IMG/VR virus record: IMGVR_UViG_3300035497_000275
Location: 1-64,000 of that record
From: a virus
Lineage: Duplodnaviria > Heunggongvirae > Uroviricota > Caudoviricetes
Strand: one strand, 5' to 3'
Length of the DNA: 64,000 nt
Shown: in pieces, positions 9,010 through 63,264 of the stretch
How positions within the stretch are numbered: position 1 is the stretch's first letter
Layout of the letters: each line of letters opens with the position of its first letter
Notes under the pieces: model-generated
What the model saw: the letters and a program-made list of their open reading frames with translations, nothing else
Databases searched by the model: none
Told to the model about the DNA's origin: nothing
Translations under genes and position numbers: made by a program

Positions 9010-9881
9010 TTATAAGCCTTTAAAAATATGCTTAATAACATCCTTTGTCCAACCGTTTCCACATAAGGATCGGCGTACATTATCACTGTATCCTTCGGTA
9101 TATCCATCTGGTAAAGTTTGCAACCGTTCATATTCTACGGGAGATAATTTCCGAATCCGTTCATTATCCCAAACTTTCTTTTCCTGATACCCTCCATTGA
9201 CACAAGTAAGAGTTGCACATTTGAATTTTGGATTATATACACGCTTTAATAAATCATGCGTATTGATTTGCAAAGTCGCAATGACCTTTTTATCGTCACC
9301 ATGAAAAATAAACGGTTTATCATAGTAATCTTTTTCTGGTACAGACTCTACCATGATATCTTGTAAAACTGTGTTATTCTTTTCTGGCAAGGGAGCAATT
9401 GGAATGTTCGTCCAATATAGTCTTTCACGATCCTGTGCTGAAAAGAGGTTGCTATTTATGTGATAACAACTTGCCCCCCCAGATTTGCGGTAATGGTATC
9501 TATATCGGCTTTATACTTTGGAACAACATTCTCCAACATGAAATAACGTGGATGAATTTCTTTAACTGCTCTCGCATATTCAAAGAAAATACCAGATTTA
9601 CCATTTAGGCCAGAACAGATCGAATCATTTTCTTGTCGTACTACGGAAAGGCTCTGGCAGCACGTTCCCGCAATCACCAAATCAAATCCATTGAACTGAG
9701 AAAAATCCGCTCCAATTACATTCCCATGATGATGAATGAATGGAAAATGTCGTGAACTGATTTCAATGGCTGGTTGGAAAATCTCGAATGTATGATATTC
9801 GTCCACTGTAATTCCTAATTCCTGCAAGGCAATCAAGCCTGTTTCAATACCGCCACAAATCGACAATACTTTTAATCCCAT
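9010..9881 (-). pseudogene. DNA (cytosine-5)-methyltransferase interrupted by a -1 frameshift in a G7 homopolymer (ORFs 9456..9881 and 9010..9390)
   Basis: The N-part has motifs I (LSICGGIETG), IV (GTCCQSLS) and VI (ENV). It stops after ..ANLGGQVVIT at the coding-strand G7 run (plus C7 at 9474..9480). With G8 the frame reads LGGASCYHINSNLFSAQDRERLYW (motif VIII QxRxR) and continues in frame into the 9010..9390 ORF (RKLSPVEYERLQTLPDGYT, RRSLCGNGWT are motifs IX/X). Confidence 0.7.
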
Positions 9882-9893
9882 GTTTTACTCTTT

Positions 9894-10319
9894 TCAAAAT
9901 AAAGGAGAATTAACGAGCGCATAAACACGGTTATCTCCATCAAAGATAATTTCTTTGATACAGTTTTTGGATTTAATATGATAACACTTGTTACCATCCA
10001 ACTGGTACACTGTCATGCCTGTATTCAACGCATACATCAATTCATCAAAAACACCACGACCAATCATCCCGGAAACCGTAGAAAACACAAGTGTATCACA
10101 TTCAGCAAGTGTATCAATAGCTGCTGTCATGATTTCTGACTCAGCGCAATCCTGCGGAAGAACTTCACTCGGATTTACAATTTCAATTGAACTATCCGGG
10201 AAAGCATCATAGATAACGTTCTTCTCATAAGCCTCCATCTTTGTGTCATACTTCCATGTGTGATGTGCGTAATAAATTTTCACTTGTATACCTCCTATTA
10301 AGTTATCAAATAAGACCAA
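9894..10319 (-). CDS. hypothetical protein; possible nucleoside 2-deoxyribosyltransferase-like fold
   Basis: 141 aa. KIYYAHH near the N-terminus and GVFDELMYALNTGMTVY weakly resemble the NDT/Rcl fold motif FE.GYA.A.GKPV. Tentative. Confidence 0.3.
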   Translation of the reverse strand: MVLFDNLIGGIQVKIYYAHHTWKYDTKMEAYEKNVIYDAFPDSSIEIVNPSEVLPQDCAESEIMTAAIDTLAECDTLVFSTVSGMIGRGVFDELMYALNTGMTVYQLDGNKCYHIKSKNCIKEIIFDGDNRVYALVNSPLF

Positions 10320-10741
10320 CGATTTTTCATTTCTTCTGGTGAAACATAATAATCACGTTTTCTACTTCCAGTCCACGCAATTCCACCAGCTTCGCCATCA
10401 AATGTAAAATTACTTGCTTTTAATGAACTTCCATTTTCAGAAGCCAATGTATAAGTGATTACTCTTTGATACCCCATATCTTTAGCAATACCCAAACAGG
10501 CTCCATATAATTTAGAACAAGCATTTCTTGTTCCATCAACACAATTACGATAAATTTCTAATGTTAATCCATCATCTAAATATCTTGCCGTTGGTCTGCC
10601 GCATATTGCAACTCCACATAATCTGTCATCATCATAACAAGATATTGCAAACTTTCCTCCAACTGGCGGAATATTATGACGGTGATATTGTTTTACATAT
10701 TCTTTTGCTGGAGTAAGATGTATTGGTCTAATTTTTAACAT
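10298..10741 (-). CDS. hypothetical protein
   Basis: 147 aa ORF inside the methyltransferase island; no recognisable motif. Confidence 0.4.
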   Translation of the reverse strand: MLKIRPIHLTPAKEYVKQYHRHNIPPVGGKFAISCYDDDRLCGVAICGRPTARYLDDGLTLEIYRNCVDGTRNACSKLYGACLGIAKDMGYQRVITYTLASENGSSLKASNFTFDGEAGGIAWTGSRKRDYYVSPEEMKNRWSYLIT

Positions 10742-10764: not shown

Positions 10765-11262
10765 TCACCTTTCTTGCACTCTAAAAATTACTGGAATCAT
10801 TACCGTAGTACGTTCCTGCATCCACGGTTTTGACGGTTCAGAAAATCTATTACTATGTTCATTGACTACGATAATATCTCCTATCGTATAGAAGAAATCG
10901 CAGTTTGATAAATCTTGCGGCAACTCAACTGATTTATCACAAGTTTCTAAATTAATGATTTTATTTAGACACTCTTGTACAGTTTCGAGTACAAATAACA
11001 GAGTTCCATCATGCCGTGATGTTTTTGTTGTAAAATATCTGAAATCAGCATTAGGATCATAGGTAATTGTTGAAGTCATTTCACTTGGTTTATCGCCAAC
11101 CGAATATGTACACTTGATTTGATTGTTCTTATCAAAAGTAATTAAACCAGTTGGAGATAAGACTGTTACATTTTCAAAAGATATATCAAAGCCATCTGCG
11201 CCAAATTCTTGAATTCTCTTTTTAATGAAATCCAAACTCTTATTCATACAATCACCTTTCAA
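10765..11262 (-). CDS. hypothetical protein
   Basis: 165 aa ORF; overlaps the upstream methyltransferase gene by 11 nt. Confidence 0.4.
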   Translation of the reverse strand: MKGDCMNKSLDFIKKRIQEFGADGFDISFENVTVLSPTGLITFDKNNQIKCTYSVGDKPSEMTSTITYDPNADFRYFTTKTSRHDGTLLFVLETVQECLNKIINLETCDKSVELPQDLSNCDFFYTIGDIIVVNEHSNRFSEPSKPWMQERTTVMIPVIFRVQER

Positions 11263-11881
11263 AATCGTCTATACGCTGACACGCTGTTTGATAATATTGA
11301 CCATCCAGTTCATATCCGATAAATCTTCGTCCTGTATGTAAAGCAGCCAATGCCGTTGAACCAGCACCGATAAAACCATCAAATACAATGTCATTTGGCC
11401 TACTGTTATTCCGAATAAACAGTTCGAGAAGTTCTGTCGGCTTTTCTGTTGGATGAACCAATTTCGCAGAAGATACCTTTGCACAGTCAATCACGTCTGC
11501 TATGCGCTTTTCTTGAAATAGTGAACGTCCTTTATGACCGAACAACACCATTTCATATTTTGGTGCATATGCACCTTTTAAGTCACCGCTGCCATGATTG
11601 TTCTTATTCCAAATCAGGATATTCTTCAGCGTAAAGTATTTCTCAAATTCCGTCTTGAAAAATTCAATATGATGCCAACTGCAAAACATATAAATTGCAG
11701 AATCGTTTTTCAAAATACGATGATATTGATATAACGACTTGGAAATTAACTGGTTTGCGTCTTTATCGTTTTGAATCCTATCAAACTTTTCTTTTACGAC
11801 ACGTCTATTACTTCTGTAATTAATCAAATAAGGAGGATCAGTTACAATCAAATCAACTGATTCATCAGGCATTTTCTCCAT
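11252..11881 (-). CDS. DNA methyltransferase, beta-class (N6-adenine or N4-cytosine; DPPY then FxGxG)
   Basis: 209 aa. DLIVTDPPY near the N-terminus, HPTEKP, C-terminal FDGFIGAGST (motif I). Confidence 0.8.
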   Translation of the reverse strand: MEKMPDESVDLIVTDPPYLINYRSNRRVVKEKFDRIQNDKDANQLISKSLYQYHRILKNDSAIYMFCSWHHIEFFKTEFEKYFTLKNILIWNKNNHGSGDLKGAYAPKYEMVLFGHKGRSLFQEKRIADVIDCAKVSSAKLVHPTEKPTELLELFIRNNSRPNDIVFDGFIGAGSTALAALHTGRRFIGYELDGQYYQTACQRIDDFER

Positions 11882-11994
11882 CCCACAAATGCAATCACTG
11901 TTGAAAATTACATTTGTTCGTAGTAAACTACTTTCAAGTGGTTCTCCTTGCCCCCCCCCAAGTTCTCGACTGCATCATGTTTCCCTCCATATTA

Positions 11995-12118: not shown

Positions 12119-12847
12119 TTATGTATCTAAAATATATAATTGCTCCGTGATATTTAACCGGGAAGCATTATCCAATGTTCTTTTGACTGGCTGTGACCAG
12201 ATCGACTTCCATTGTACTGGTGCGGCTTGTTCCGAAACCAAAACAATATTCTTAGCAGACATTTCTTCTGCCCAATTCCAGAATTGTTCATGGTCAAATT
12301 CTTGTTGATACCCTGTTGTATTCGCATATGGAATATCACAGTAAATTACACCATGTTCATACTTTGACTGATCAAGCTGCTGATAGTCAAACTCGGCAAA
12401 TTCTACTCCTTGTAATGATGGAATCTGATTTAACAAATTTCGCTTTGCTTCATCATAATAGTTCCGAATTGTGCCGATTTTTGTTTTGACTGTCCCGGCT
12501 CTTCCGCCAAAGAACTTCCCATTATACGATGCAAGAAATCCTACCGCACCGATATACCAATCTGGAAATTGATGATCACCAGTTTGGTAGGATTTTCTGA
12601 CTGCATCATACTCGTCTTTCGTAATTTCATCTGGCAAAGTAGTAATTAAATCCATATTCTTGAATAGTTCAATGAGATAATGGTTGATATCATATCCCAT
12701 TTTCCTATTGCAAGAAATCTTATCAATTACGTTTGCCCCCCCCACGAAAGGCTCAAGGTAAAAATCGGCATCAAAATCGCTGATATAAGTCTGTATAATT
12801 GGAACGATAAACTTAGCAATGCGGGATTTTGAGCCAACGTACTTCAT
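12119..12847 (-). CDS. DNA adenine methyltransferase, Dam (D12 class, alpha)
   Basis: 242 aa. KYVGSKSRIAKFIVPII...EPFVGGANV (motifs X/I) and later CDIPY (DPPY variant), the Dam order. Confidence 0.85.
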   Translation of the reverse strand: MKYVGSKSRIAKFIVPIIQTYISDFDADFYLEPFVGGANVIDKISCNRKMGYDINHYLIELFKNMDLITTLPDEITKDEYDAVRKSYQTGDHQFPDWYIGAVGFLASYNGKFFGGRAGTVKTKIGTIRNYYDEAKRNLLNQIPSLQGVEFAEFDYQQLDQSKYEHGVIYCDIPYANTTGYQQEFDHEQFWNWAEEMSAKNIVLVSEQAAPVQWKSIWSQPVKRTLDNASRLNITEQLYILDT

Positions 12848-13948: not shown

Positions 13949-14440
13949 TTATCTTAATTTGATCCAATATCCTATATCCGACATTTCTTTAACCGCAGCA
14001 TCATAGTCGTTGTCGGTAAATACGACTAATTCACTTGGGAAAGGCGCAGGATCGTCTTGGTCATTGAAACGCAATCGTCCTTTTACGAAACAAACGTATT
14101 TTGCATTTGGAAAAACATAATTGTGCTGTGCTTTTACATCTGTTCTTGCTGGAATCAACATCACAGAAGTAATGTGATTTAACTGGCTTTCAATACAACA
14201 CTTTTCAATCCAATCCTCTTGTCCCGGATGTGCCTTCGTCTTACGTTCATAAGGCGGATTACAAAAAACTGTTTGCCCCCCCCAAGTTTGTGCCAGTCCA
14301 TCTTGTTCGATGGTATAGTAGGCATCACACTTATGGTTCGTATCATCTGCACATGGATCAAGTGTGAAATGAAAGACAGAATTCAAGCGATCAAATAACC
14401 ATTGCGGCGTTCCCCAATTATTGTTTCCAGTGCTTAACAA
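13949..14440 (-). CDS. DNA N6-adenine methyltransferase, small phage Dam-like (NPPY) family
   Basis: 163 aa. WGTPQWLFD...TWGGQTVFCNPPY (motif IV NPPY). Confidence 0.7.
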   Translation of the reverse strand: MLSTGNNNWGTPQWLFDRLNSVFHFTLDPCADDTNHKCDAYYTIEQDGLAQTWGGQTVFCNPPYERKTKAHPGQEDWIEKCCIESQLNHITSVMLIPARTDVKAQHNYVFPNAKYVCFVKGRLRFNDQDDPAPFPSELVVFTDNDYDAAVKEMSDIGYWIKLR

Positions 14441-14470: not shown

Positions 14471-14487
14471 CTTGCATTTATGGTTAT
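14471..14487 (-). promoter_or_regulatory. conserved 17-bp motif ATAACCATAAATGCAAG (copy 1)
   Basis: Exact match to the motif also found at 27628, 45318, 50171 and 54263; about 30 nt upstream of the 14440 start. Confidence 0.4.
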
Positions 14488-16667
14488 GTAGTTAAAAAAG
14501 AATTATAGAACATATCCCGAAGCTGGATGATATGTGTTGGATGATCTTCTTGGGCGGAAAGATTCATCACGAATCCATAGAACTGATTTTCAAGAGGTGT
14601 CTGCAACGAACCCATATACTTGAAATGTCCTTGGCGGAAAATTGTATGAGCCATTGACCGCATCTTCTTCCAGAGTTTATAATAAGACAGTTTGAACTTC
14701 ACCATGAATCCAACGCTATCCTCTACCACAAAACCCTCAATCACATGACCATCATACAAATAATCGTCAGTCATGATCTCATCATACCAATTGTAGAAAT
14801 CATGCCAATTCTGAATCTGAATCGCTCGTTTCTTTACCTCGAAGCCAAAATCCTTTCCAAGTTGGACAAGCTGCGAATACGAATACTTTTCAAATTCGAT
14901 CTCATTTTTCACTACATCCAGCAGGAACAAATGTGACTTATCATATTTGATAATATGAGGATCATGCTCCATATCTACACATTCAAACACGAATGTCACA
15001 TTCTTCTGCTTCATGTACTCTTTCAGCACATCCGCATTTTTGACGTTGGCATAGAACATATCATGCAACCAGTCAGAAAATTCTCCAGTAGGATCGGACT
15101 TGCTCGTGATAAAGAAATCATCCAGTTCGGCATCATAAGATACCATTCCAAGAAATCCATTCTCTTTCACATAAGCCGTGACAGGGAACCTGAATTTATG
15201 CTGGAGCATATCAAATCTTGTTTCTGGACGCTCGTTGACATTAAAGAATTTCGGATAGGCTCTTGCAACAACATTGCCAGTTACCGTATTGATAAACAAT
15301 CCTCTGGCCTTTGTTGTCTGCTCATTCCATTTCTTATCATAGAAGGCATTGCGAGTGAAATTGAAAGACGAAATATTTCCGAACTTCTTTTCGTTAATGT
15401 ACTTATTGCGCCGCATCTGGTCAACCAAATCCATTACCGTGGATTCTTTTTCAGTATACTTTTCAGGAATTTCTTCGTCCTGCTGCCTGAATACCGTATT
15501 CCGAATACTGATCGGATGGAAACCATCTGCATCCAGCGTTACAACTCGCAAATCCTTTCCGAATTCCACGCTGCCTTCCAAATCAAAACAACGGTCTGAA
15601 ACTTGAATCGGCAAATCCTGTGTATTTCGATGACCAAACACCTGATATACATTCTCAGGCATCAGTGTATCAAAACAATGAACAACATCTACATACTCAC
15701 TATATTTACCGACACCACGAATCATCTGGTCTGACGCAACCATTGTCAGATTATCAGGAATCATGCTCAAACCAGCGTGTGTGACAAGAACTGTCTTACC
15801 TCCATATGTATAATAGGCGCATTGACTCAGTTTTCGATACAACATTCTGGCAATCTTTGTATCCAGTCCGCTCATTTCAAGCTGCCTTCTTGTTACACGC
15901 TCAAATTCCGGGGACTTCGACACACCACCATGCGCCCAATACCAAAGCCAGCGTTCATGATTTCCTTCCAGCAGGATCACATTCGGACGATCCATAATAC
16001 TGTACAGGAAATTGATGACTTCAACATTTTCAATTCCACGGTCAATATAATCGCCGCAGAAAATGTACAGTTCATCATCCTGAATCCCATCATTCAAATA
16101 CTCCTGAAGGACGGTATTACAACCGTGGATATCACCAATATGATGGATTTTCTTAAAGTTGGAGAAATCCATTGGACGATACCAAATCTTGTCCAACTCG
16201 TCAGGCTGAATCACCGTCACACCCGCTGGAATCTTCTGCATAGCAAACCGGGAATACATATTATCAATGACTTCCTCTGGAACTTGCTTGTAGTATGGTC
16301 TGTTTTTATTTCTCCGTTTACATTCCTCAATAGGAACTGTGGTGAAATCAACGCAGTACATTCGATATCGGTAAGTTTTTGCCATATCCTTATAACGGTT
16401 GATCTCTGCCGTTTTAGAATTTGTAGCATCCACCACCACGAATTCTCCACGCTGCATTCTGGCTTCGAGCATCTGGAACAGTAATTGCCAAACTGTTTTA
16501 TCGTTACCCTGACTGATCCCCATTGAGCCATCCACTTGCATCACCGGGGACTGACACATCAGACGAATATTATCAGCGGAAAGCGTAAACTGTTCCAAAC
16601 CATGCTCTTTGATGTAGGTGGACTTTCCTACGCCAGCCGCACCACGCATCAATAACAATACTCGCAT
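14484..16667 (-). CDS. Pnkp-like RNA repair enzyme: polynucleotide kinase + calcineurin-type phosphatase + ligase-like adenylyltransferase
   Basis: 727 aa. N-terminal P-loop LLLMRGAAGVGKSTY. Central metallophosphatase motifs IGDIHGC, GDYIDRG, GNHE. C-terminal YVKENGFLG resembles nucleotidyltransferase motif I (KxDG/KEDGSL of RNA ligases). Same domain order as bacterial Pnkp. Confidence 0.75.
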   Translation of the reverse strand: MRVLLLMRGAAGVGKSTYIKEHGLEQFTLSADNIRLMCQSPVMQVDGSMGISQGNDKTVWQLLFQMLEARMQRGEFVVVDATNSKTAEINRYKDMAKTYRYRMYCVDFTTVPIEECKRRNKNRPYYKQVPEEVIDNMYSRFAMQKIPAGVTVIQPDELDKIWYRPMDFSNFKKIHHIGDIHGCNTVLQEYLNDGIQDDELYIFCGDYIDRGIENVEVINFLYSIMDRPNVILLEGNHERWLWYWAHGGVSKSPEFERVTRRQLEMSGLDTKIARMLYRKLSQCAYYTYGGKTVLVTHAGLSMIPDNLTMVASDQMIRGVGKYSEYVDVVHCFDTLMPENVYQVFGHRNTQDLPIQVSDRCFDLEGSVEFGKDLRVVTLDADGFHPISIRNTVFRQQDEEIPEKYTEKESTVMDLVDQMRRNKYINEKKFGNISSFNFTRNAFYDKKWNEQTTKARGLFINTVTGNVVARAYPKFFNVNERPETRFDMLQHKFRFPVTAYVKENGFLGMVSYDAELDDFFITSKSDPTGEFSDWLHDMFYANVKNADVLKEYMKQKNVTFVFECVDMEHDPHIIKYDKSHLFLLDVVKNEIEFEKYSYSQLVQLGKDFGFEVKKRAIQIQNWHDFYNWYDEIMTDDYLYDGHVIEGFVVEDSVGFMVKFKLSYYKLWKKMRSMAHTIFRQGHFKYMGSLQTPLENQFYGFVMNLSAQEDHPTHIIQLRDMFYNSFLTT

Positions 16668-19848: not shown

Positions 19849-20211
19849 TTATGCTGAAGTCCCAAGGCCAAGGCTAACCAGCATGGCGTAATTGATTTCC
19901 TGCATCTTTTCTTCCGTCACGCTGCCGACATAGTTCTCCAGTCTACTCTTGTCGATTGTCCTGACCTGTTCCAGCAGCACCGTTGAATCCATTGATAAAT
20001 TACTTTCGTTGCATGGAATTTCGATGTGCGTGGGCAGATTCTTCTTTTGCTTAGAAGTCAGAACCGCAACAATGATCGTAGGACTGTAATGATTCCCGAC
20101 ATTATTCTGAATTACGACCACGGGACGAGTGCCGCCCTGTTCAGACCCGATAGCGGGACTGAGATCGGCATAGTAGATTTCGCCTCTCATGATATTCTTC
20201 ATAACGAACAC
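19849..20211 (-). CDS. MazF/PemK-family endoribonuclease toxin (EndoA-like)
   Basis: RGEIYYADLSPAIGSEQGGTRPVVVIQNNVGNHYSPTIIVAVLTS..LPTHIEI..LLEQVRTIDKSRL is near-collinear with Bacillus EndoA/MazF. The likely true start is ATG at 20202 (MKNIMRGE), with a GGAAGGTG RBS. Confidence 0.8.
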   Translation of the reverse strand: MFVMKNIMRGEIYYADLSPAIGSEQGGTRPVVVIQNNVGNHYSPTIIVAVLTSKQKKNLPTHIEIPCNESNLSMDSTVLLEQVRTIDKSRLENYVGSVTEEKMQEINYAMLVSLGLGTSA

Positions 20212-21165: not shown

Positions 21166-21528
21166 ATGGATTCAAGTATCTACTGGCGGATCAAAGAACT
21201 TTGCGACAGGCGAGGAATCACCATTACAAAGTTAGAAAAAGACTGCGGATTTTCCAATTCTACCGTCAAGAAATGGAAAAGTACGAGTACCCCAAACGCC
21301 GACACAATTCTTATCGTAGCAAAATACCTGAACGTTTCTACCGATTACCTCTTTGGTAACACCGACATTTGTACGCCAATTGACGAATACATAGGTAACG
21401 AAAATTATGTGAAGATGCAACGGAAAATGTCACGGATGAATTCAAAAGACCAAGAACGTGCGCTTCAAATGATTGATCTCGGCTTTCAAACCGCTTACGA
21501 TGATCAGGACAAGAATAAAAGCGAATAG
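21166..21528 (+). CDS. XRE-family helix-turn-helix transcriptional regulator (repressor-like)
   Basis: 120 aa. N-terminal HTH_3-like IKELCDRRGITITKLEKDCGFSNSTVKKWKS. Confidence 0.75.
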   Translation: MDSSIYWRIKELCDRRGITITKLEKDCGFSNSTVKKWKSTSTPNADTILIVAKYLNVSTDYLFGNTDICTPIDEYIGNENYVKMQRKMSRMNSKDQERALQMIDLGFQTAYDDQDKNKSE

Positions 21529-21580: not shown

Positions 21581-22180
21581 TTGCTTAGATATGCCTATAT
21601 TTGCAACCAAGTCCTCCAGCTTTATCGGCAAATGCCGACTATTCAATTCCCCATTGACCCAAGACTTATCTTAGACCAAATTGAAAACTGCAAGACTATG
21701 ACTTATCAGACCTTCGCTGAAATCAACCACTGTTCGATCCAAGAAGTGTACACGATCTGCGAAAGTCAAAGCGGCTGCACCCATTATGATATTGTCAAAG
21801 ATCGTTACCTTGTCCTATTTAATTCCTCCACTGACAATAACAACGTGGCAGGAAGAATCCGCTGGACATTAGCACATGAATTAGGTCACATCATATTGAA
21901 GCACCTCCTTTATGTGGCTGATAAAAAGATTGCGGAACGAAATTTCAGAAATTTGTCCAACCCGGAATTAGAATCCGAAGCGGACTATTTCGCCTCCCTT
22001 CTGTTGGCTCCTATGCCGCTTTATAAGCAGCTTTCTATCCAGACGGCAAAGGATATTCAAACCACTTTTGGCTTGTCCTGTGAGGCCGCTGAATGCCGTT
22101 GGCGGGATTATCTGCGCTGGACACGCAATCACACGAAAACCGCATGGGAAAATGACTTGAAAAGGATATATCAATCTTAA
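21581..22180 (+). CDS. ImmA/IrrE-family zinc metallopeptidase
   Basis: 199 aa. HELGHIILKH (HExxH). TTG start with GAGGTGA RBS. Directly downstream of the XRE regulator. Confidence 0.75.
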   Translation: MLRYAYICNQVLQLYRQMPTIQFPIDPRLILDQIENCKTMTYQTFAEINHCSIQEVYTICESQSGCTHYDIVKDRYLVLFNSSTDNNNVAGRIRWTLAHELGHIILKHLLYVADKKIAERNFRNLSNPELESEADYFASLLLAPMPLYKQLSIQTAKDIQTTFGLSCEAAECRWRDYLRWTRNHTKTAWENDLKRIYQS

Positions 22181-26373: not shown

Positions 26374-27213
26374 TTAATTATAGGACGCAACAAAAACAAA
26401 CTGGTTGATGTAGTCCGGCTGCTGTGTGAAGATAGGAATTTCCATATCAAAGCACCACTTATTTCGCACGATCTCACCAATCTTCACAGGCTTCTTTACA
26501 CAACAAGTACCACGCTTACAAGGTGTAGAGAAATCATTCCAGTTGATCCCCTTTTCTGTGAAAAGCATATCCTGAATCTTATCGCAGGATTGGTTCATCA
26601 ACTGCTTGTGGGAGAAATTAGCCTGACCGACAGATTGAATACTGTTCCGTGTGCAATCTACCTGTCTCCACACGAAGTAATTGGCAACATCATCCTTCGG
26701 CACATTGAATACACGGGCATCAAACAATGCCTTATCAAACCGGGATGTGTAAATCTGCGCCAGCTTCAAGGCATCCCGATCCACATTCGGATCATTTGTT
26801 CCGCCTTCATACCAGTCTGGCAAAGTCTCATTGCCCCATTCATCCACGTTCTTACGCCATGCGGCATTGAAGGCCATTGTTGCCATAGACGCTGAGACAC
26901 TACACATCTTCTGAAGCGTATTATCAAACCAAGAATCGCTTGCAATCGTCTGATAATCGACCAGCAACAGAGAAATTTCATCCGACTGTGTATAACCAAG
27001 CACACAGCCCTGAATATTTTCGCAGAGATACTTCATCGTATCCTGCATCGTTTTCATCAAAATCTGATCAAAAGGTTTCTTAAATCCTCTTGTAAATGTG
27101 TGAAAGGCTTTCCCATCAATCCGAATGATAACAGGCATACGCCGCACCAAATGCGCCCTTGTGACATTCTCGTAGGTTTTCATACGGTTGCCAAGATTAT
27201 CACGCTTATCCAT
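26374..27213 (-). CDS. Thg1-like protein (tRNA-His guanylyltransferase / 3'-5' nucleotidyltransferase family)
   Basis: 279 aa. KTYENVTRAHLVRRMPVIIRIDGKAFHTFTRGFKKPFD and YTQSDEISLLLVD match the Thg1 catalytic RIDG..FH.F and SDE blocks. Confidence 0.8.
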   Translation of the reverse strand: MDKRDNLGNRMKTYENVTRAHLVRRMPVIIRIDGKAFHTFTRGFKKPFDQILMKTMQDTMKYLCENIQGCVLGYTQSDEISLLLVDYQTIASDSWFDNTLQKMCSVSASMATMAFNAAWRKNVDEWGNETLPDWYEGGTNDPNVDRDALKLAQIYTSRFDKALFDARVFNVPKDDVANYFVWRQVDCTRNSIQSVGQANFSHKQLMNQSCDKIQDMLFTEKGINWNDFSTPCKRGTCCVKKPVKIGEIVRNKWCFDMEIPIFTQQPDYINQFVFVASYN

Positions 27214-30039: not shown

Positions 30040-31377
30040 TTACACCTCCAGATATGTTTTTGCCTGTTCCATCAAAACAGACCTTTTATTTTCCAATGTG
30101 CCTTCCACCACGGCATCCAGCAACTTTTTCAAAACTGCTCCAAGCTGGATACCTTGACGGAAACCAAGTTCCATCAGGTCTTTTCCGCTGACCGCCAAAT
30201 CCTTTAAGGTATAGCAGTCCTGCTCGGCCTGAATCTCCGCATAGATTTCCCAAATCTTTGAAAGGTTCGCTCGATCATCCGCAATGGGAGTCTGCGCCGC
30301 TTTATCTGCTGCCTTGACGTGCAACAGGCGTTCAAACTGTTCCGCTCCATAACGGTTCAAACAACGGCGCACAGAGGCTTTTGTGGGCGCAATCTCATGG
30401 TCATGAAATTCCACAAGCTGCGTAACAGTTTCCACCGTTTTATTATCAAAACGAAGATTCTTCAAGGAATTTTCCGCTATTCCAGCACTGATCACAGAAT
30501 GGTGATAGAAATGTCCATTCCCCTGTTCATCCAGCGTCATGCAATGGGGTTTTCCAAGGTCATGATAAAGTAGCGCAAGGCGGACATACAAATCCTTCGG
30601 CGCATAGGAAACTGCCGTGACAGTATGATTCCACACGTCCATATAATGATGAGGATTATGCTGCAAAAATCCAACGGCTGGCGTGATTTCCGGGATGATG
30701 ACGGCGAAAATCTCCTGATAACAGCGAAGCATGGTATAGCAAGCGTCACTCAGCAGGATTTCAGACAGTTCTCCAATCATCCGCTCTGGCGCAATTTGCT
30801 TCAGCAAATCCTTATGACGGAACATGGCTTCCTCTGTCCGCTTTTCCACAAAGAATCCAAACCGGGACGCAAAGCGAATGGCACGGAGAATCCGCAAAGC
30901 ATCCTCCTGAAACCGCTTATCTGGATTTCCAACACAGCAGATTTGTCCAAGTTTCAAATCAAAACGGCTTTTGGAATAGTCGATCACTCTGCCGCTGCTG
31001 TCTGCCGCCATTGCGTTGATCCGAAAATCACGGCGGGACAAATCTTCCTTTAGGTCACTGACGAATTCCACAGAATCAGGATGACGATGATCCGAATACA
31101 CACCATCTTTACGAAACGTGGTGATTTCATAACCTACACCATCCAGCAGGACAGTCAATGTTCCATGCTTCAATCCCGTTTCAATAACACGGAAATTACG
31201 GAAAATAGATTTCATCTGTCCCGGCAACGCACTGGTGCAAATGTCCCAATCATGCGGCGTTCTTCCAAGCAGACTATCCCGGACACATCCGCCCACCACA
31301 TAGGCGGAACATCCCGCATCCGTCAAAATATTCATCAACTGACGGGGAGCATCAGGAATTTCAATATAGGTGTCCAT
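30040..31377 (-). CDS. CCA-adding tRNA nucleotidyltransferase with C-terminal HD domain
   Basis: 445 aa. Pol-beta head motif AYVVGGCVRDSLLGRTPHDWDICT. C-terminal HD signature LLYHDLGKPH. Confidence 0.85.
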   Translation of the reverse strand: MDTYIEIPDAPRQLMNILTDAGCSAYVVGGCVRDSLLGRTPHDWDICTSALPGQMKSIFRNFRVIETGLKHGTLTVLLDGVGYEITTFRKDGVYSDHRHPDSVEFVSDLKEDLSRRDFRINAMAADSSGRVIDYSKSRFDLKLGQICCVGNPDKRFQEDALRILRAIRFASRFGFFVEKRTEEAMFRHKDLLKQIAPERMIGELSEILLSDACYTMLRCYQEIFAVIIPEITPAVGFLQHNPHHYMDVWNHTVTAVSYAPKDLYVRLALLYHDLGKPHCMTLDEQGNGHFYHHSVISAGIAENSLKNLRFDNKTVETVTQLVEFHDHEIAPTKASVRRCLNRYGAEQFERLLHVKAADKAAQTPIADDRANLSKIWEIYAEIQAEQDCYTLKDLAVSGKDLMELGFRQGIQLGAVLKKLLDAVVEGTLENKRSVLMEQAKTYLEV

Positions 31378-31628: not shown

Positions 31629-32705
31629 TTAATCCAACCCAATGAATTTACCTAAATACTGCCTTTCAAAGCACAAGTCCGGCATACCATCCTGCATGAT
31701 GGAATAGCGGTTGACATACATGGTAAATTCCTCGATCTCCTTGCTGTTTGGCTTTTCCGGGAGGGAGGAATTTTCCTTTGCGTAGTTCATCCGCTTTTCG
31801 TACTCATTGACCATATCGTAAAATTCCTGTCGAAACGTTCCATCTTCGTTCTGGAATTCTCCGTTGCGAATGGACATTAACAACGGCAAATCATGCTCCC
31901 GGTAGGTAATGATCTCTTCCTTTTCCAGAATGTCAATGCACATCAGGTACAGACGGATCAAGTGCATAGCGTGTTTTGCCAAATAAGCATCGTCTTTCTT
32001 CTTGTTCCGCTGCGTGATTTTTCCGTAGTCCTTGATAATTTTGTTGAGGTCGCTCCAAATGTTCTTATAATCCCGCAACGGATAATGCTTTAAGGAAACG
32101 TCCGCAAAAATCTCCGTGTCCAAATCCTCCTGCTGCGACTGGTCAACATACAACTGGAATGTTCCGTTTTCAAAATCCTGATACCGCTCGTTGAAAGAAA
32201 ACATAGCGGATTTACAGGAGGACAAAATGTGCGCCTCTTTTTCTGACTGCCCATAATTGTTTCTCGCCAAGGCCGCTTGCAGACGGCGAAGCTGCTGTGT
32301 GGCATATCCGCCAAAAGCGTAAATGGCTTTCCGGGACAGGAACATCTTACGCTTTTCCACCAGCAGTTTTCCGATCTCATTATAGAAATGGTAACTGTCT
32401 GGTCTGCATCCAAGTAATTCGATTGTGTTAGGATTACAGTTTTCCAACAGGCCAACCAGTTTATTAAAACTATAAATCGTGGTGTCCGTCTGGTTATCCA
32501 CGACCTGTTCAAAGTTGGTTCTTCCAAGCAAATCCCGGCTTGAATTCAAAGCGCATCCACGCACGTCAATGTCGGAGTCCGGGACGTTTGTTCCATAGGC
32601 GTGACTGCCGCCAAAAGTGGCAAATATCATCCGCTGTCCAAGATGTTCATTGGTATTGATAAACTGATATTCAGGACGTGCAAGCACTTCAATAATGTCC
32701 ATCAT
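31629..32705 (-). CDS. Pol-beta superfamily nucleotidyltransferase (NTase head plus helical tail)
   Basis: 358 aa. FATFGGSHAYGTNVPDSDIDVRG gives the GS-x10-DxD NTase signature. Sits next to the CCA-adding enzyme. Its stop overlaps the start of 32702..33418. Confidence 0.6.
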   Translation of the reverse strand: MMDIIEVLARPEYQFINTNEHLGQRMIFATFGGSHAYGTNVPDSDIDVRGCALNSSRDLLGRTNFEQVVDNQTDTTIYSFNKLVGLLENCNPNTIELLGCRPDSYHFYNEIGKLLVEKRKMFLSRKAIYAFGGYATQQLRRLQAALARNNYGQSEKEAHILSSCKSAMFSFNERYQDFENGTFQLYVDQSQQEDLDTEIFADVSLKHYPLRDYKNIWSDLNKIIKDYGKITQRNKKKDDAYLAKHAMHLIRLYLMCIDILEKEEIITYREHDLPLLMSIRNGEFQNEDGTFRQEFYDMVNEYEKRMNYAKENSSLPEKPNSKEIEEFTMYVNRYSIMQDGMPDLCFERQYLGKFIGLD

Positions 32706-54287: not shown

Positions 54288-54929
54288 ATGAAAGTTTTGG
54301 AATTGTTTGCTGGGACTCGTTCTATTGGCAAGGCTTTTGAACGGGGGGGGCATGAAGTTTTTAGTATAGAATGGGATCAGCATTTTGAGAACATTAATCT
54401 TTATGCCGATATTGGTAAGGTAACTGCTGAAGAAATTATTAAACAGTTTGGCAGACCTGATGTGATTTGGGCTTCCCCTGATTGTACTACATATTCAATT
54501 GCTGCGATTTCACATCATAGAAGAAAAGAAGATGATGGCAATTTAGCAGCGGTTTCAGAATACGCAAAATTTTGTGATCAAGTAAATGTTCATGTTTTGG
54601 AGTTGATTAAAGAATTGAATCCAAAATTTTGGTTCATTGAAAATCCTCGTGGTGGATTAAGGAAGATGCGTTTTATGCAAGGGCTTCCACGTTATACTGT
54701 TACATATTGTCAATATGGCGATTCTCGTATGAAACCAACAGATATTTTTACAAATCACCCAAATCCAGAATTTAAACCGCCTTGCCATAATGGTGATCCG
54801 TGTCATGTATCTGCGCCAAGAGGTGCTAAGACTGGAACACAAGGATTAAAGGGGCATATTGAACGTTCTATTATTCCAGAACAATTATGTGACCATATTG
54901 TAAAAATTTGCGAAGATTATTGGGAGTGA
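54288..54929 (+). CDS. compact SAM-dependent DNA methyltransferase, cytosine-5-like
   Basis: 213 aa. LELFAGTRSIG (motif I), ASPDCTTYS (PC motif), FIENPRG (ENV-like). Contains a G8 run at 54343..54350. Confidence 0.5.
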   Translation: MKVLELFAGTRSIGKAFERGGHEVFSIEWDQHFENINLYADIGKVTAEEIIKQFGRPDVIWASPDCTTYSIAAISHHRRKEDDGNLAAVSEYAKFCDQVNVHVLELIKELNPKFWFIENPRGGLRKMRFMQGLPRYTVTYCQYGDSRMKPTDIFTNHPNPEFKPPCHNGDPCHVSAPRGAKTGTQGLKGHIERSIIPEQLCDHIVKICEDYWE

Positions 54930-62301: not shown

Positions 62302-62376
62302 GGCGTGTTAGTCAAGTGGTTAAGACACCGCCCTTTCACGGCGGTAACACGAGTTCGAGTCTCGTACACGTCACCA
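62302..62376 (+). tRNA. tRNA-Glu (UUC)
   Basis: Acceptor GGCGTGT/ACACGTC, anticodon arm CCGCC-CTTTCAC-GGCGG, T-arm ACGAG-TTCGAGT-CTCGT, CCA encoded. 75 nt. Confidence 0.85.
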
Positions 62377-62520
62377 ATAGGGAACGGTTAATTAGAATAT
62401 CATAAACTCTTTGTTAGACGAAAGGGTTCGCTGCTCATGAGGCGTGTCTATATGATATTGTAAGTAAGGATTAACCAAGTAATAAGAGTTATGGAGTGGT
62501 TTTCTTATTACAAAAGACAA

Positions 62521-62594
62521 TGCGGAATATTGTAATGGTAGCATATTAGCCTCATAAGCTGATGATTCTGGTTCAATTCCAGATTCCGCAACCA
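62521..62594 (+). tRNA. tRNA-Met/Ile2 type (CAU), D-arm atypical
   Basis: Acceptor TGCGGAA/TTCCGCA, anticodon arm TTAGC-CTCATAA-GCTGA, T-arm TCTGG-TTCAATT-CCAGA, CCA. No clean 4-bp D-stem found by eye. Confidence 0.6.
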
Positions 62595-62597
62595 AAT

Positions 62598-62686
62598 GGA
62601 GTGTTGCCAGAGTTGGTAATGGGTCGGATTGCTAATCCGCAGCCAACGGAAACGTTGCGAAGGTTCAAATCCTTCACACTCCGCCA
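62598..62686 (+). tRNA. tRNA-Ser (GCU)
   Basis: Acceptor GGAGTGT/ACACTCC, anticodon loop TTGCTAA, long variable arm, T-arm AAGG-TTCAAAT-CCTT, CCA. 89 nt. Confidence 0.75.
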
Positions 62687-62694
62687 AAATATAT

Positions 62695-62770
62695 GCTGCT
62701 GTGGCGCAATAGGTAGCGCAACTGATTTGTAATCAGTAGGTTGCAGGTTCGATTCCTGTCAGCAGCTCCA
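62695..62770 (+). tRNA. tRNA-Thr (UGU)
   Basis: Acceptor GCTGCTG/CAGCAGC, D-arm GCGC-AATAGGTA-GCGC, anticodon arm ACTGA-TTTGTAA-TCAGT, CCA. 76 nt. Confidence 0.85.
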
Positions 62771-62773
62771 TAT

Positions 62774-62849
62774 GGGGACGTGGCGCAATTGGGAGCGCAT
62801 CTGATTTGCATTCAGAGGGTTGTGGGTTCGAGTCCCATCGTTTCCACCA
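62774..62849 (+). tRNA. tRNA-Ala (UGC)
   Basis: Acceptor GGGGACG with G3-U70, anticodon arm TCTGA-TTTGCAT-TCAGA, T-arm GTGGG-TTCGAGT-CCCAT, CCA. 76 nt. Confidence 0.85.
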
Positions 62850-62852
62850 TAT

Positions 62853-62939
62853 GCGGATGTGATGGAATTGGTAGACGTGCTTGACTCAAAATCAAGTGGT
62901 AGTGATACCGTGTGGGTTCGAGTCCCACCATCCGTACCA
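62853..62939 (+). tRNA. tRNA-Leu (CAA)
   Basis: Acceptor GCGGATG/CATCCGT, anticodon arm CTTGA-CTCAAAA-TCAAG, long variable arm, CCA. 87 nt. Confidence 0.85.
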
Positions 62940-63013
62940 ATATTCCCGTATTACAATGGTCTATGTATCTTTCCTATTGGCGAGAGCGGCTTGCAACGCA
63001 GCGGGAATTATAT

Positions 63014-63088
63014 AGGAGTGTAGTGTAACGGTCAGCATATCGGACTTTGACTCCGCTGGTAAAGGTTCAAATCCTTTCACTCCTGCCA
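63014..63088 (+). tRNA. tRNA-Gln (UUG)
   Basis: Acceptor AGGAGTG/CACTCCT, anticodon loop CTTTGAC, T-arm AAAGG-TTCAAAT-CCTTT, CCA. 75 nt. Confidence 0.75.
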
Positions 63089-63099
63089 TAATTAAATAT

Positions 63100-63187
63100 G
63101 GGGGTATAGCCGAACTGGTATAGGCAACAGACTTAAAATCTGTCGGTAGTGATACCATTGTGGATTCGAGTTCCACTACCCCTACCA
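63100..63187 (+). tRNA. tRNA-Leu (UAA)
   Basis: Acceptor GGGGGTA/TACCCCT, anticodon arm ACAGA-CTTAAAA-TCTGT, long variable arm, T-arm GTGGA-TTCGAGT-TCCAC, CCA. 88 nt. Confidence 0.85.
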
Positions 63188-63190
63188 TAT

Positions 63191-63264
63191 TGAGGGTATG
63201 GTGTAATGGTAACACGCTTGCCTTGGGAGCAAGAGTAGCAGTTCAAGTCTGATACCTTCAGCCA
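63191..63264 (+). tRNA. tRNA-Pro (UGG)
   Basis: Anticodon arm CTTGC-CTTGGGA-GCAAG perfect, D-stem GTGT/ACAC, T-loop TTCAAGT, ends ..ACCTTCAGCCA. Short variable arm; exact ends uncertain. Confidence 0.7.

Follow-up and report, generated by a model that had tools for sequence, protein, structure and literature searches.

A run of seven G residues interrupts a phage gene for a predicted cytosine methyltransferase of the Dnmt3 type. This run is probably a hypermutable contingency locus, found here in its OFF state, within an orphan enzyme encoded by the phage, and it is one of a set of poly-G runs. Comparison of related genomes shows, at the level of sequence, that such runs are conserved, over-represented and gene-specific, that their length alone sets the reading frame, and that natural length polymorphism is abundant. 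The phage apparently possesses a multi-switch, phase-variable methylome. Below, "the window" denotes the whole 64-kb stretch of DNA that was analyzed, and ON and OFF refer to tract lengths that leave a gene in or out of frame.

A Poly-G Tract Splits a Predicted Dnmt3-like Methyltransferase Gene

The G7 tract of the C-5 cytosine methyltransferase (C5) gene occupies positions 9474-9480 on the minus strand; the in-frame (ON) length in this lineage is G8. The N-terminal part of the gene is the minus-strand ORF 9456..9881 (141 aa), which carries motifs I, IV and VI and ends in ...ANLGGQVVIT*, with its stop codon seven codons past the tract (CTG GGG GGG CAA GTT GTT ATC ACA TAA on the minus strand). 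The C-terminal part (9010..9473, minus strand), with motifs VIII, IX and X, is read in another frame, which is open from before the tract to position 9010 without an internal stop. As sequenced, the window thus does not encode motifs I-X in one polypeptide, the frame of VIII-X being different from that of I-VI; the single-polypeptide set appears only once G7 becomes G8. Addition of one G (or removal of two) at 9474-9480 yields a continuous 290-aa ORF that stops at 9010 and reads ...LGGASCYHINSNLFSAQDRERLYWTNIPIAPLPEKNNTVLQD... across the tract, where the change from G7 to G8 restores CTG GGG GGG GCA, i.e., LGGA. The repaired 290-aa protein gives a single match to Pfam PF00145, covering profile positions 3-320 of 324 (80.9 bits); matches of the unrepaired fragments are limited to positions 3-111 (N-terminal) and 255-320 (C-terminal).

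The original prediction, made from the sequence alone, described a C5 gene split at a G7 tract, with motifs I, IV and VI in an ORF ending right after LGGQVVIT, and proposed that one inserted G would lead, through a QxRxR motif VIII, into ORF 9010..9390 with motifs IX/X. ORF and Pfam analyses bear out this description: the G7 is exact, one additional G rejoins both PF00145 parts in a frame that runs to 9010, and motif VIII is present in the restored frame as QDRER. The remaining motifs read ICGGIETG (I), TCCQ (IV), ENV, within LENV (VI), RKLSPVEYERLQTLPDGY (IX) and GNGW (X). Both features expected of a C5 enzyme, the SAM-binding motif I (ICGGIETG) and the catalytic cysteine of motif IV (GTCCQSLS), are found, and the cysteine is invariant in 21 homologues. 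Motif IV (window positions 9650-9670) reads G-T-C-C-Q-S-L-S in place of the usual S/P-P-C-Q; in an alignment with DNMT3A its TCC lies opposite SPC, proline having been replaced by cysteine in most of this clade, and homologues P0030 and P0032 are among the few that retain SPC. The best solved relatives of the repaired protein are the catalytic domains of DNMT3A/3B (E = 1e-18), and comparison with DNMT3 places the G run in the loop that separates motif VI from motif VIII. We conclude that the repaired gene is predicted to encode a Dnmt3-like C-5 cytosine DNA methyltransferase.

All Long G/C Runs of the Window Lie in Methyltransferase Genes

All five G/C runs of at least seven bases in the 64-kb window are inside DNA methyltransferase genes, which represent four Pfam families; the window contains no further ORF with methyltransferase motifs and no recognizable methyltransferase ORF without a run. 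Besides the C5 gene (PF00145; G7, OFF, G8 needed), the N6_N4 gene (PF01555) is OFF, with a G9 tract at 11951-11959 on the minus strand where G8 is needed. Three genes are ON with G8: the D12-class Dam (PF02086, ORF 12119..12847, minus strand), whose tract at 12736-12743 encodes FVGGA of motif I; the phage-type Dam (PF05869, ORF 13949..14440, minus strand), whose tract at 14276-14283 encodes TWGGQ just upstream of NPPY; and a small C5-like gene on the plus strand (N-terminal part of PF00145, ORF 54288..54929, 213 aa), whose tract at 54343-54350 encodes ERGGH after motif I.

In the N6_N4 gene, which spans 11252..11978 on the minus strand when its tract-bearing N terminus is included, the G9 lies seven codons past an ATG preceded by a ribosome-binding site (11978, MMQSRTWGG..) and puts this start out of frame with the DPPY domain. 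Its state was therefore judged by a start-codon-aware analysis, stop-to-stop ORF length being misleading for an N-terminal tract. Frame arithmetic gives ON at G8, G5 or G11. An ORF from an internal ATG extends over 11252..11881, and gene calls at this locus consist of an internal-ATG ORF (209 or 206 aa) and a 33-aa stub.

Such runs exceed what the composition and codon usage of the window lead one to expect of homopolymers within ORFs. At 39.6% G+C, the window has 10 overlapping matches to GGGGGGG, compared with a mean of 2.1 and a maximum of 7 in shuffled sequences. In its long ORFs, GGG is a minority glycine codon (15% of Gly codons), and the only two GGG-GGG pairs among 33 Gly-Gly dipeptides are both in methyltransferases.

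Tract Length and Reading Frame Vary across the Phage Family

A scan of viral contigs, metagenomes and reference genomes located the C5 gene in about 50 related contigs, at 77-87% protein identity; many of these contigs are 100-145 kb long, and a number of them carry the label human gut metagenome. The samples underlying IMG 3300045988 contain at least seven strains of the family. With one exception, the ancestral-looking L011/L059 lineage (ATG GGG GTA), the relatives share the codon position of the run. Tabulated from the alignment, C5 tract lengths in the family are G5, G6, G7, G8 and G9; 26 contigs have the gene ON and 20 have it OFF. Altering the run alone restores a protein of 291-303 aa from every OFF allele that lies wholly within its contig. 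One contig, L009, has an interrupted run (GGGGGAG) and is locked ON. Family-wide, therefore, length polymorphism toggles the frame of otherwise intact genes.

The in-frame length itself depends on the sub-lineage, being G7 in TTG GGG GGG CAA ATT and in CTT GGG GGG GCA AGT and G8 in CTT GGG GGG GGC AAT. This variation of the in-frame length, taken with a compensating difference of 1 nt immediately 3′ of the run in the alignment, suggests that a compensating indel close by sometimes rescues an OFF allele and thereby sets a new ON length. A separate observation concerns homologue P0016, which leaves the frame at the run and regains it only just ahead of TNI (LGGGANSPVVKFKSLFCTRQ), so that motif VIII is lost. 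Either a far-off indel has compensated for an OFF allele here, or the gene was miscalled.

At the tract sites of the approximately 50 family contigs, runs are 5-11 bases long. The PF05869 Dam of relatives is OFF with G7 (14 cases) or G9 (3 cases) and ON with G8 (13 cases) or G11 (1 case). D12 runs extend from G6 to G11; G7 is ON in 12 relatives, this being the ON length where the 5′ codon is GTC or ATC, and G6, G8, G9 and G11 are OFF. N6_N4 runs range from G6 to G10 and are ON at G8 only, and the small C5 gene is OFF with G9 in L037, a relative of the same family. Additional carriers are found among the relatives: an MT-A70-type methylase with a sense-strand poly-C run (C6-C9, C8 being ON), a gamma-class NPPY methylase (C7 OFF, C8 ON), a PAPS-reductase-domain protein with one or two runs, a Pnkp/RNA-ligase-like gene (G6-G8, mostly ON and occasionally OFF) and a small ORF of 85 aa. 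Family-wide, the tract carriers thus comprise at least seven methyltransferase genes and the PAPS-reductase-domain, Pnkp/RNA-ligase-like and small-ORF genes. The notion that the runs are always G on the sense strand was dropped, as two further methylase genes have poly-C there. The combination of ON and OFF genes differs in nearly every genome of the family; L001, L017 and L018, which are 99.8-99.9% identical, have three different ON/OFF states.

In genomes that are 97-99.99% identical, nearly all indels are of one to four Gs within poly-G runs. Across 13 pairs of such genomes, a length difference was seen in 25 of the 49 comparisons of G/C runs (at least seven bases) and in 2 of the 83 comparisons of A/T runs (at least six bases); Fisher's test gives a p of about 2e-11, with the caveat that the pairs are not independent. 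A/T runs are much commoner and yet near-invariant, a pattern that generic homopolymer sequencing error does not fit. An apparent 1149-bp deletion between tracts (L006 compared with L008) proved to be an alignment artefact at a contig end, with no rearrangement.

Outside the family, the runs are not seen. C5 proteins of at most 70% identity have LGV.P in place of the run, and small-C5 homologues read GCT AGG GGG CAT or GCA AAA GGT CAT, with no run. G runs of at least seven are absent from about 143 kb of unrelated phage loci with homologous methylases; methylase clusters of the family contain 3.3 of them per 10 kb. As the outside homologues lack runs, these appear to have been built convergently in several unrelated enzyme families of one phage lineage. 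Judged by sequence comparison, the runs are selected, not incidental.

The G7 Allele Is the Consensus of the Strain

Contigs of the same strain were defined as those that encode exactly the D12 methylase of the window or exactly the 141-aa C5 fragment. They came from JGI metagenomes 3300035495, 3300035498, 3300043077, 3300043078 and 3300043104 and from SRA runs SRR11792166, SRR11792607 and SRR11792608, and are 99.99-100% identical to the window; the contig from 3300035498 is 123,740 bp long. Every one of them that covers a tract has the length found in the window (C5 G7, N6_N4 G9, D12 G8, Dam G8), these run lengths being those of metagenome consensus assemblies, some of which may share underlying samples. 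Hence the OFF state is a reproducible consensus of this phage strain. Run-length polymorphism is seen across the phage family, but there is none within the strain itself among these consensus contigs. A homology search of 5.8 billion proteins found no ON allele of this strain, the best match being 87% identical. Given the invariant tract lengths and the lack of an ON allele in that search, the strain could be stably OFF.

The start of L008 and the ends of five short metagenome contigs (L063, L065, L073, L076 and L077) lie at or near poly-G runs. Assemblers would be expected to break contigs there if run length were heterogeneous within a sample, an indirect indication at most.

Alternative Explanations for the Interrupted Gene

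A G7 read in place of G8 is a classic miscall on some platforms, and the remainder of the C5 gene is intact, as would be the case if the real template had G8 and the gene were whole. Such a sequencing or assembly error is nevertheless extremely improbable: at least eight contigs, built by different assemblers from three SRA runs and no fewer than five JGI samples, have the same G7; A/T homopolymers almost never differ among close relatives, whereas G runs do; and an error gives no account of runs that are confined to methyltransferase genes or defy codon usage. The original prediction had left the choice between an OFF-phase contingency gene and a homopolymer sequencing error; the former is supported, and the occurrence of G7 in every same-strain contig speaks against the latter. 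It is also conceivable that the gene is not truly OFF but is recoded, by programmed -1 ribosomal frameshifting on G_GGG_GGG or by transcriptional slippage. Indeed, CU G GGG GGG CAA is a perfect zero-frame X_XXY_YYZ heptamer on which a -1 shift yields LGGA..., and the region downstream of the run folds somewhat better than shuffled sequences (z = -2.6). However, the predicted fold pairs the G run itself and provides no spaced stimulator, most relatives are in frame, and the OFF relatives need corrections of +1, +2, -1 or -2, so that no conserved shift is required. Furthermore, the run and its G(n)CA flank (see below) are antisense in two other methylase genes, so this signature is not translational. 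Neither the conserved, required shift nor the spaced downstream stimulator of a programmed -1 frameshift was thus found in the homologues and the predicted RNA fold, and we regard recoding as very unlikely.

Alternatively, the C5 gene of this strain could be a recent pseudogene, inactivated by a one-base deletion (possibly of the flanking T), with no useful switching, and persisting only for want of time for further decay. Every sample of the strain is OFF, the protein database has no ON allele of it, and the window reads AATCT-G7-CAA where the nearest intact C5 relatives read AAxCTT-G7-GCA; from this alignment, the base lost could be the T beside the run and not a G within it. Deletion of that T is one possible route to the OFF state. 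Another possible route is a change of CTT to CTG, creating an in-frame G8, followed by slippage to G7. The same genome offers a parallel to this second route: with GTG, not GTC or ATC, as the codon before its run, D12 has an in-frame G8; the GTC to GTG analogue makes CTT to CTG and a -1 slip equally plausible. Moreover, the C5 gene has no second lesion. Compared with the closest intact genes (L052, L053 and L001), dN/dS is 0.04-0.08, low in both halves, and there is no excess of nonsynonymous change in the half downstream of the frameshift, which is unlike a decaying pseudogene. The G7 run is kept, a +1 slip gives a perfect LGGA protein, and sister lineages hold both OFF and ON alleles at 99.9% identity. 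We therefore consider fixed inactivation unlikely and prefer to view the C5 tract as a contingency locus in its OFF phase.

A Common Sequence Follows the Runs

We surveyed the flanks of long G runs in the window and in contigs L001-L023, L037 and L052-L082. In 37 of the 39 distinct contexts, a run of at least seven Gs is followed by CA (mostly CAA or CAG); CA follows 7.9% of G4-5 runs. Roughly 10 of the 11 tract sites show the G(n)CA arrangement; they belong to unrelated genes, with the Gs on the sense strand in some and on the antisense strand in others. At many of them the run interrupts the palindrome TTGCAA, giving TTG-G(n)-CAA. A longer string, G(n)CAAGT[AT]GTT, is common to the Dam gene, the PAPS-reductase gene and the C5 gene of the window type. 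The flank stays with the G strand whichever strand is coding, and the C5 genes of the various lineages translate the same G(n)CAA string in all three frames. This independence of strand and frame indicates a feature of the DNA and not of translation.

The flank is not predicted by simple slippage. It may point to copying of tracts between genes or to a requirement of the slippage process. One could go further and propose that the runs are installed and maintained by a sequence-directed process, a "methylome shuffler" with up to 2^9 states, which could operate by tract copying between genes (template switching or gene conversion) or through a phage factor that recognizes the motif; we think this doubtful.

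Proposed Role of Switching and Relation to Known Systems

If the tracts are contingency loci, slipped-strand mispairing during phage DNA replication would add Gs to the runs or remove them, and each tract-bearing gene would toggle independently, so that many methylation patterns would coexist in one phage population. In the ON state, a methylase would protect the phage from host restriction-modification systems that cut unmethylated sites; in the OFF state, it would let the phage escape methylation-dependent (type IV) restriction as well as the cost of expression. The function of switching would then be bet-hedging between host types, a logic that has an experimental precedent in the A run of T2 agt, where there is a trade-off between restriction by TgvAB and restriction by McrA/BC (bioRxiv 10.1101/2025.10.21.683753).

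The T2/T4 contingency loci (Gomez, Barrick and Waters, 10.1101/2025.10.21.683753) resemble the present case in that homopolymer frameshifts occur inside a phage DNA-modification gene, and in the trade-off between defences against modified and unmodified DNA. In T2, an A run of about nine lies in one glucosyltransferase gene of a cultured coliphage, and reversible switching was measured. Here, G/C runs are found in five to nine genes, mostly for SAM-dependent methyltransferases, in uncultured Clostridia phages, and the case for switching comes from comparison. Fletchervirus, a Campylobacter phage, is likewise reported to have polyG runs (7-11) in its genes, and these hypermutable tracts create phenotypic subpopulations (Sorensen et al., Cell Rep 2021). 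The Fletchervirus tracts are in receptor-binding protein genes and alter host recognition, and the host is Campylobacter, whose own genome is polyG-rich; ours are in DNA-modification genes of phages of Gram-positive Clostridia. A polyG run in a phage methylase gene is also on record for Bordetella phage BPP-1 (Liu et al. 2004); as cited in later work, it concerns one gene, was reported in passing and was not studied further, with no description of a multi-gene set or of population polymorphism. In bacterial phasevarions and restriction-modification genes (type III mod, type I hsd, polyG in C. jejuni cj0031), a repeat within the methyltransferase ORF, as here, toggles methylation ON and OFF by slipped-strand mispairing. 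Those genes are chromosomal, are usually parts of restriction-modification systems, and regulate host gene expression or defence, whereas the present ones are orphan phage methylases, with several independent switches per genome and a presumed role in counter-defence.

Contingency loci of bacteria and phages are thus already known, those of phages having been recognized only lately, in 2021 for receptor-binding genes of Campylobacter phages and in 2025, in a preprint, for T2/T4. Our literature searches turned up neither this phage family nor methylase tracts spread over several genes, nor any phage family reported to have switches in essentially all its DNA-modification genes. A whole family of large phages of human-gut Clostridia appears to have acquired, convergently, poly-G switches in essentially every such gene. 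If this is true, phages diversify their epigenetic coat combinatorially against hosts that differ in restriction-modification and methylation-dependent restriction, which bears on how phage host range, gut phage-host dynamics and metagenomic phage methylomes are read. For annotation it would mean that "frameshifted" phage methylase genes should not be silently repaired or discarded.

Gene Neighborhood and Probable Nature of the Phage

The replication genes of the window encode DnaB-like and UvrD helicases, an AAA_24 protein and a YorH-domain protein. There are 11 tRNA genes, nine in a cluster and two for tRNA-Ser elsewhere. A tRNA repair and supply set (14484-16667, 26374-27213, 30040-31377, 31629-32705 and 62302-63264) includes a Pnkp-like kinase/phosphatase/RNA ligase, a Thg1-like guanylyltransferase, a CCA-adding enzyme and an RlaP nucleotidyltransferase; repair together with tRNA supply suggests a defence against host anticodon nucleases. 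From the Pfam annotation of an identical contig (L026), we also located an ORF for a PemK/MazF-type toxin (19849-20211, minus strand), adjoining which is a plus-strand pair for an HTH repressor (21166-21528) and an ImmA-like Peptidase_M78 protein (21581-22180). Such a module fits a temperate lifestyle, or may be a toxin-based module.

Blastn of the region against deposited phages gave no match, and tblastn against them detected only distant C5 homologues, at most 45% identical; hence the phage has no cultured close relative. A scaffold of "Clostridiaceae bacterium strain 9" (QXXE01000019.1) contains one family member, and Blautia has a C5 homologue of 58% identity. SPbeta-like Bacillus phages encode Pnkp-like proteins with 45% identity to the one in the window. 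By these sequence similarities, we read the element as an SPbeta-like large, probably temperate, phage of gut Clostridia. Bacillus phages of the SPbeta group are large temperate phages of Firmicutes that have their own C5 methyltransferases (M.SPR, M.phi3T) for self-protection, and these enzymes are multispecific; they are not known to have homopolymer switches. The window has in common with this group the YorH domain and the Pnkp-like gene; its C5 enzyme differs from theirs in being Dnmt3-like, with a best match of 45% in deposited phages.

The neighbors in the methylase cluster are other orphan methyltransferases, a Band_7 protein, a Mom-like ORF and small ORFs, none of them recognizable as a restriction subunit; the cluster accordingly does not qualify as a phasevarion of the type I/III restriction-modification kind. 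The Mom-like ORF (147 aa, 10298-10741, minus strand) lies between the N6_N4 and C5 genes; its match to Mom (PF25680) is weak and below threshold (20.9 bits; cut-off, 27.1). Many relatives have in its place a 430-aa PAPS-reductase-domain gene with poly-G runs of its own.
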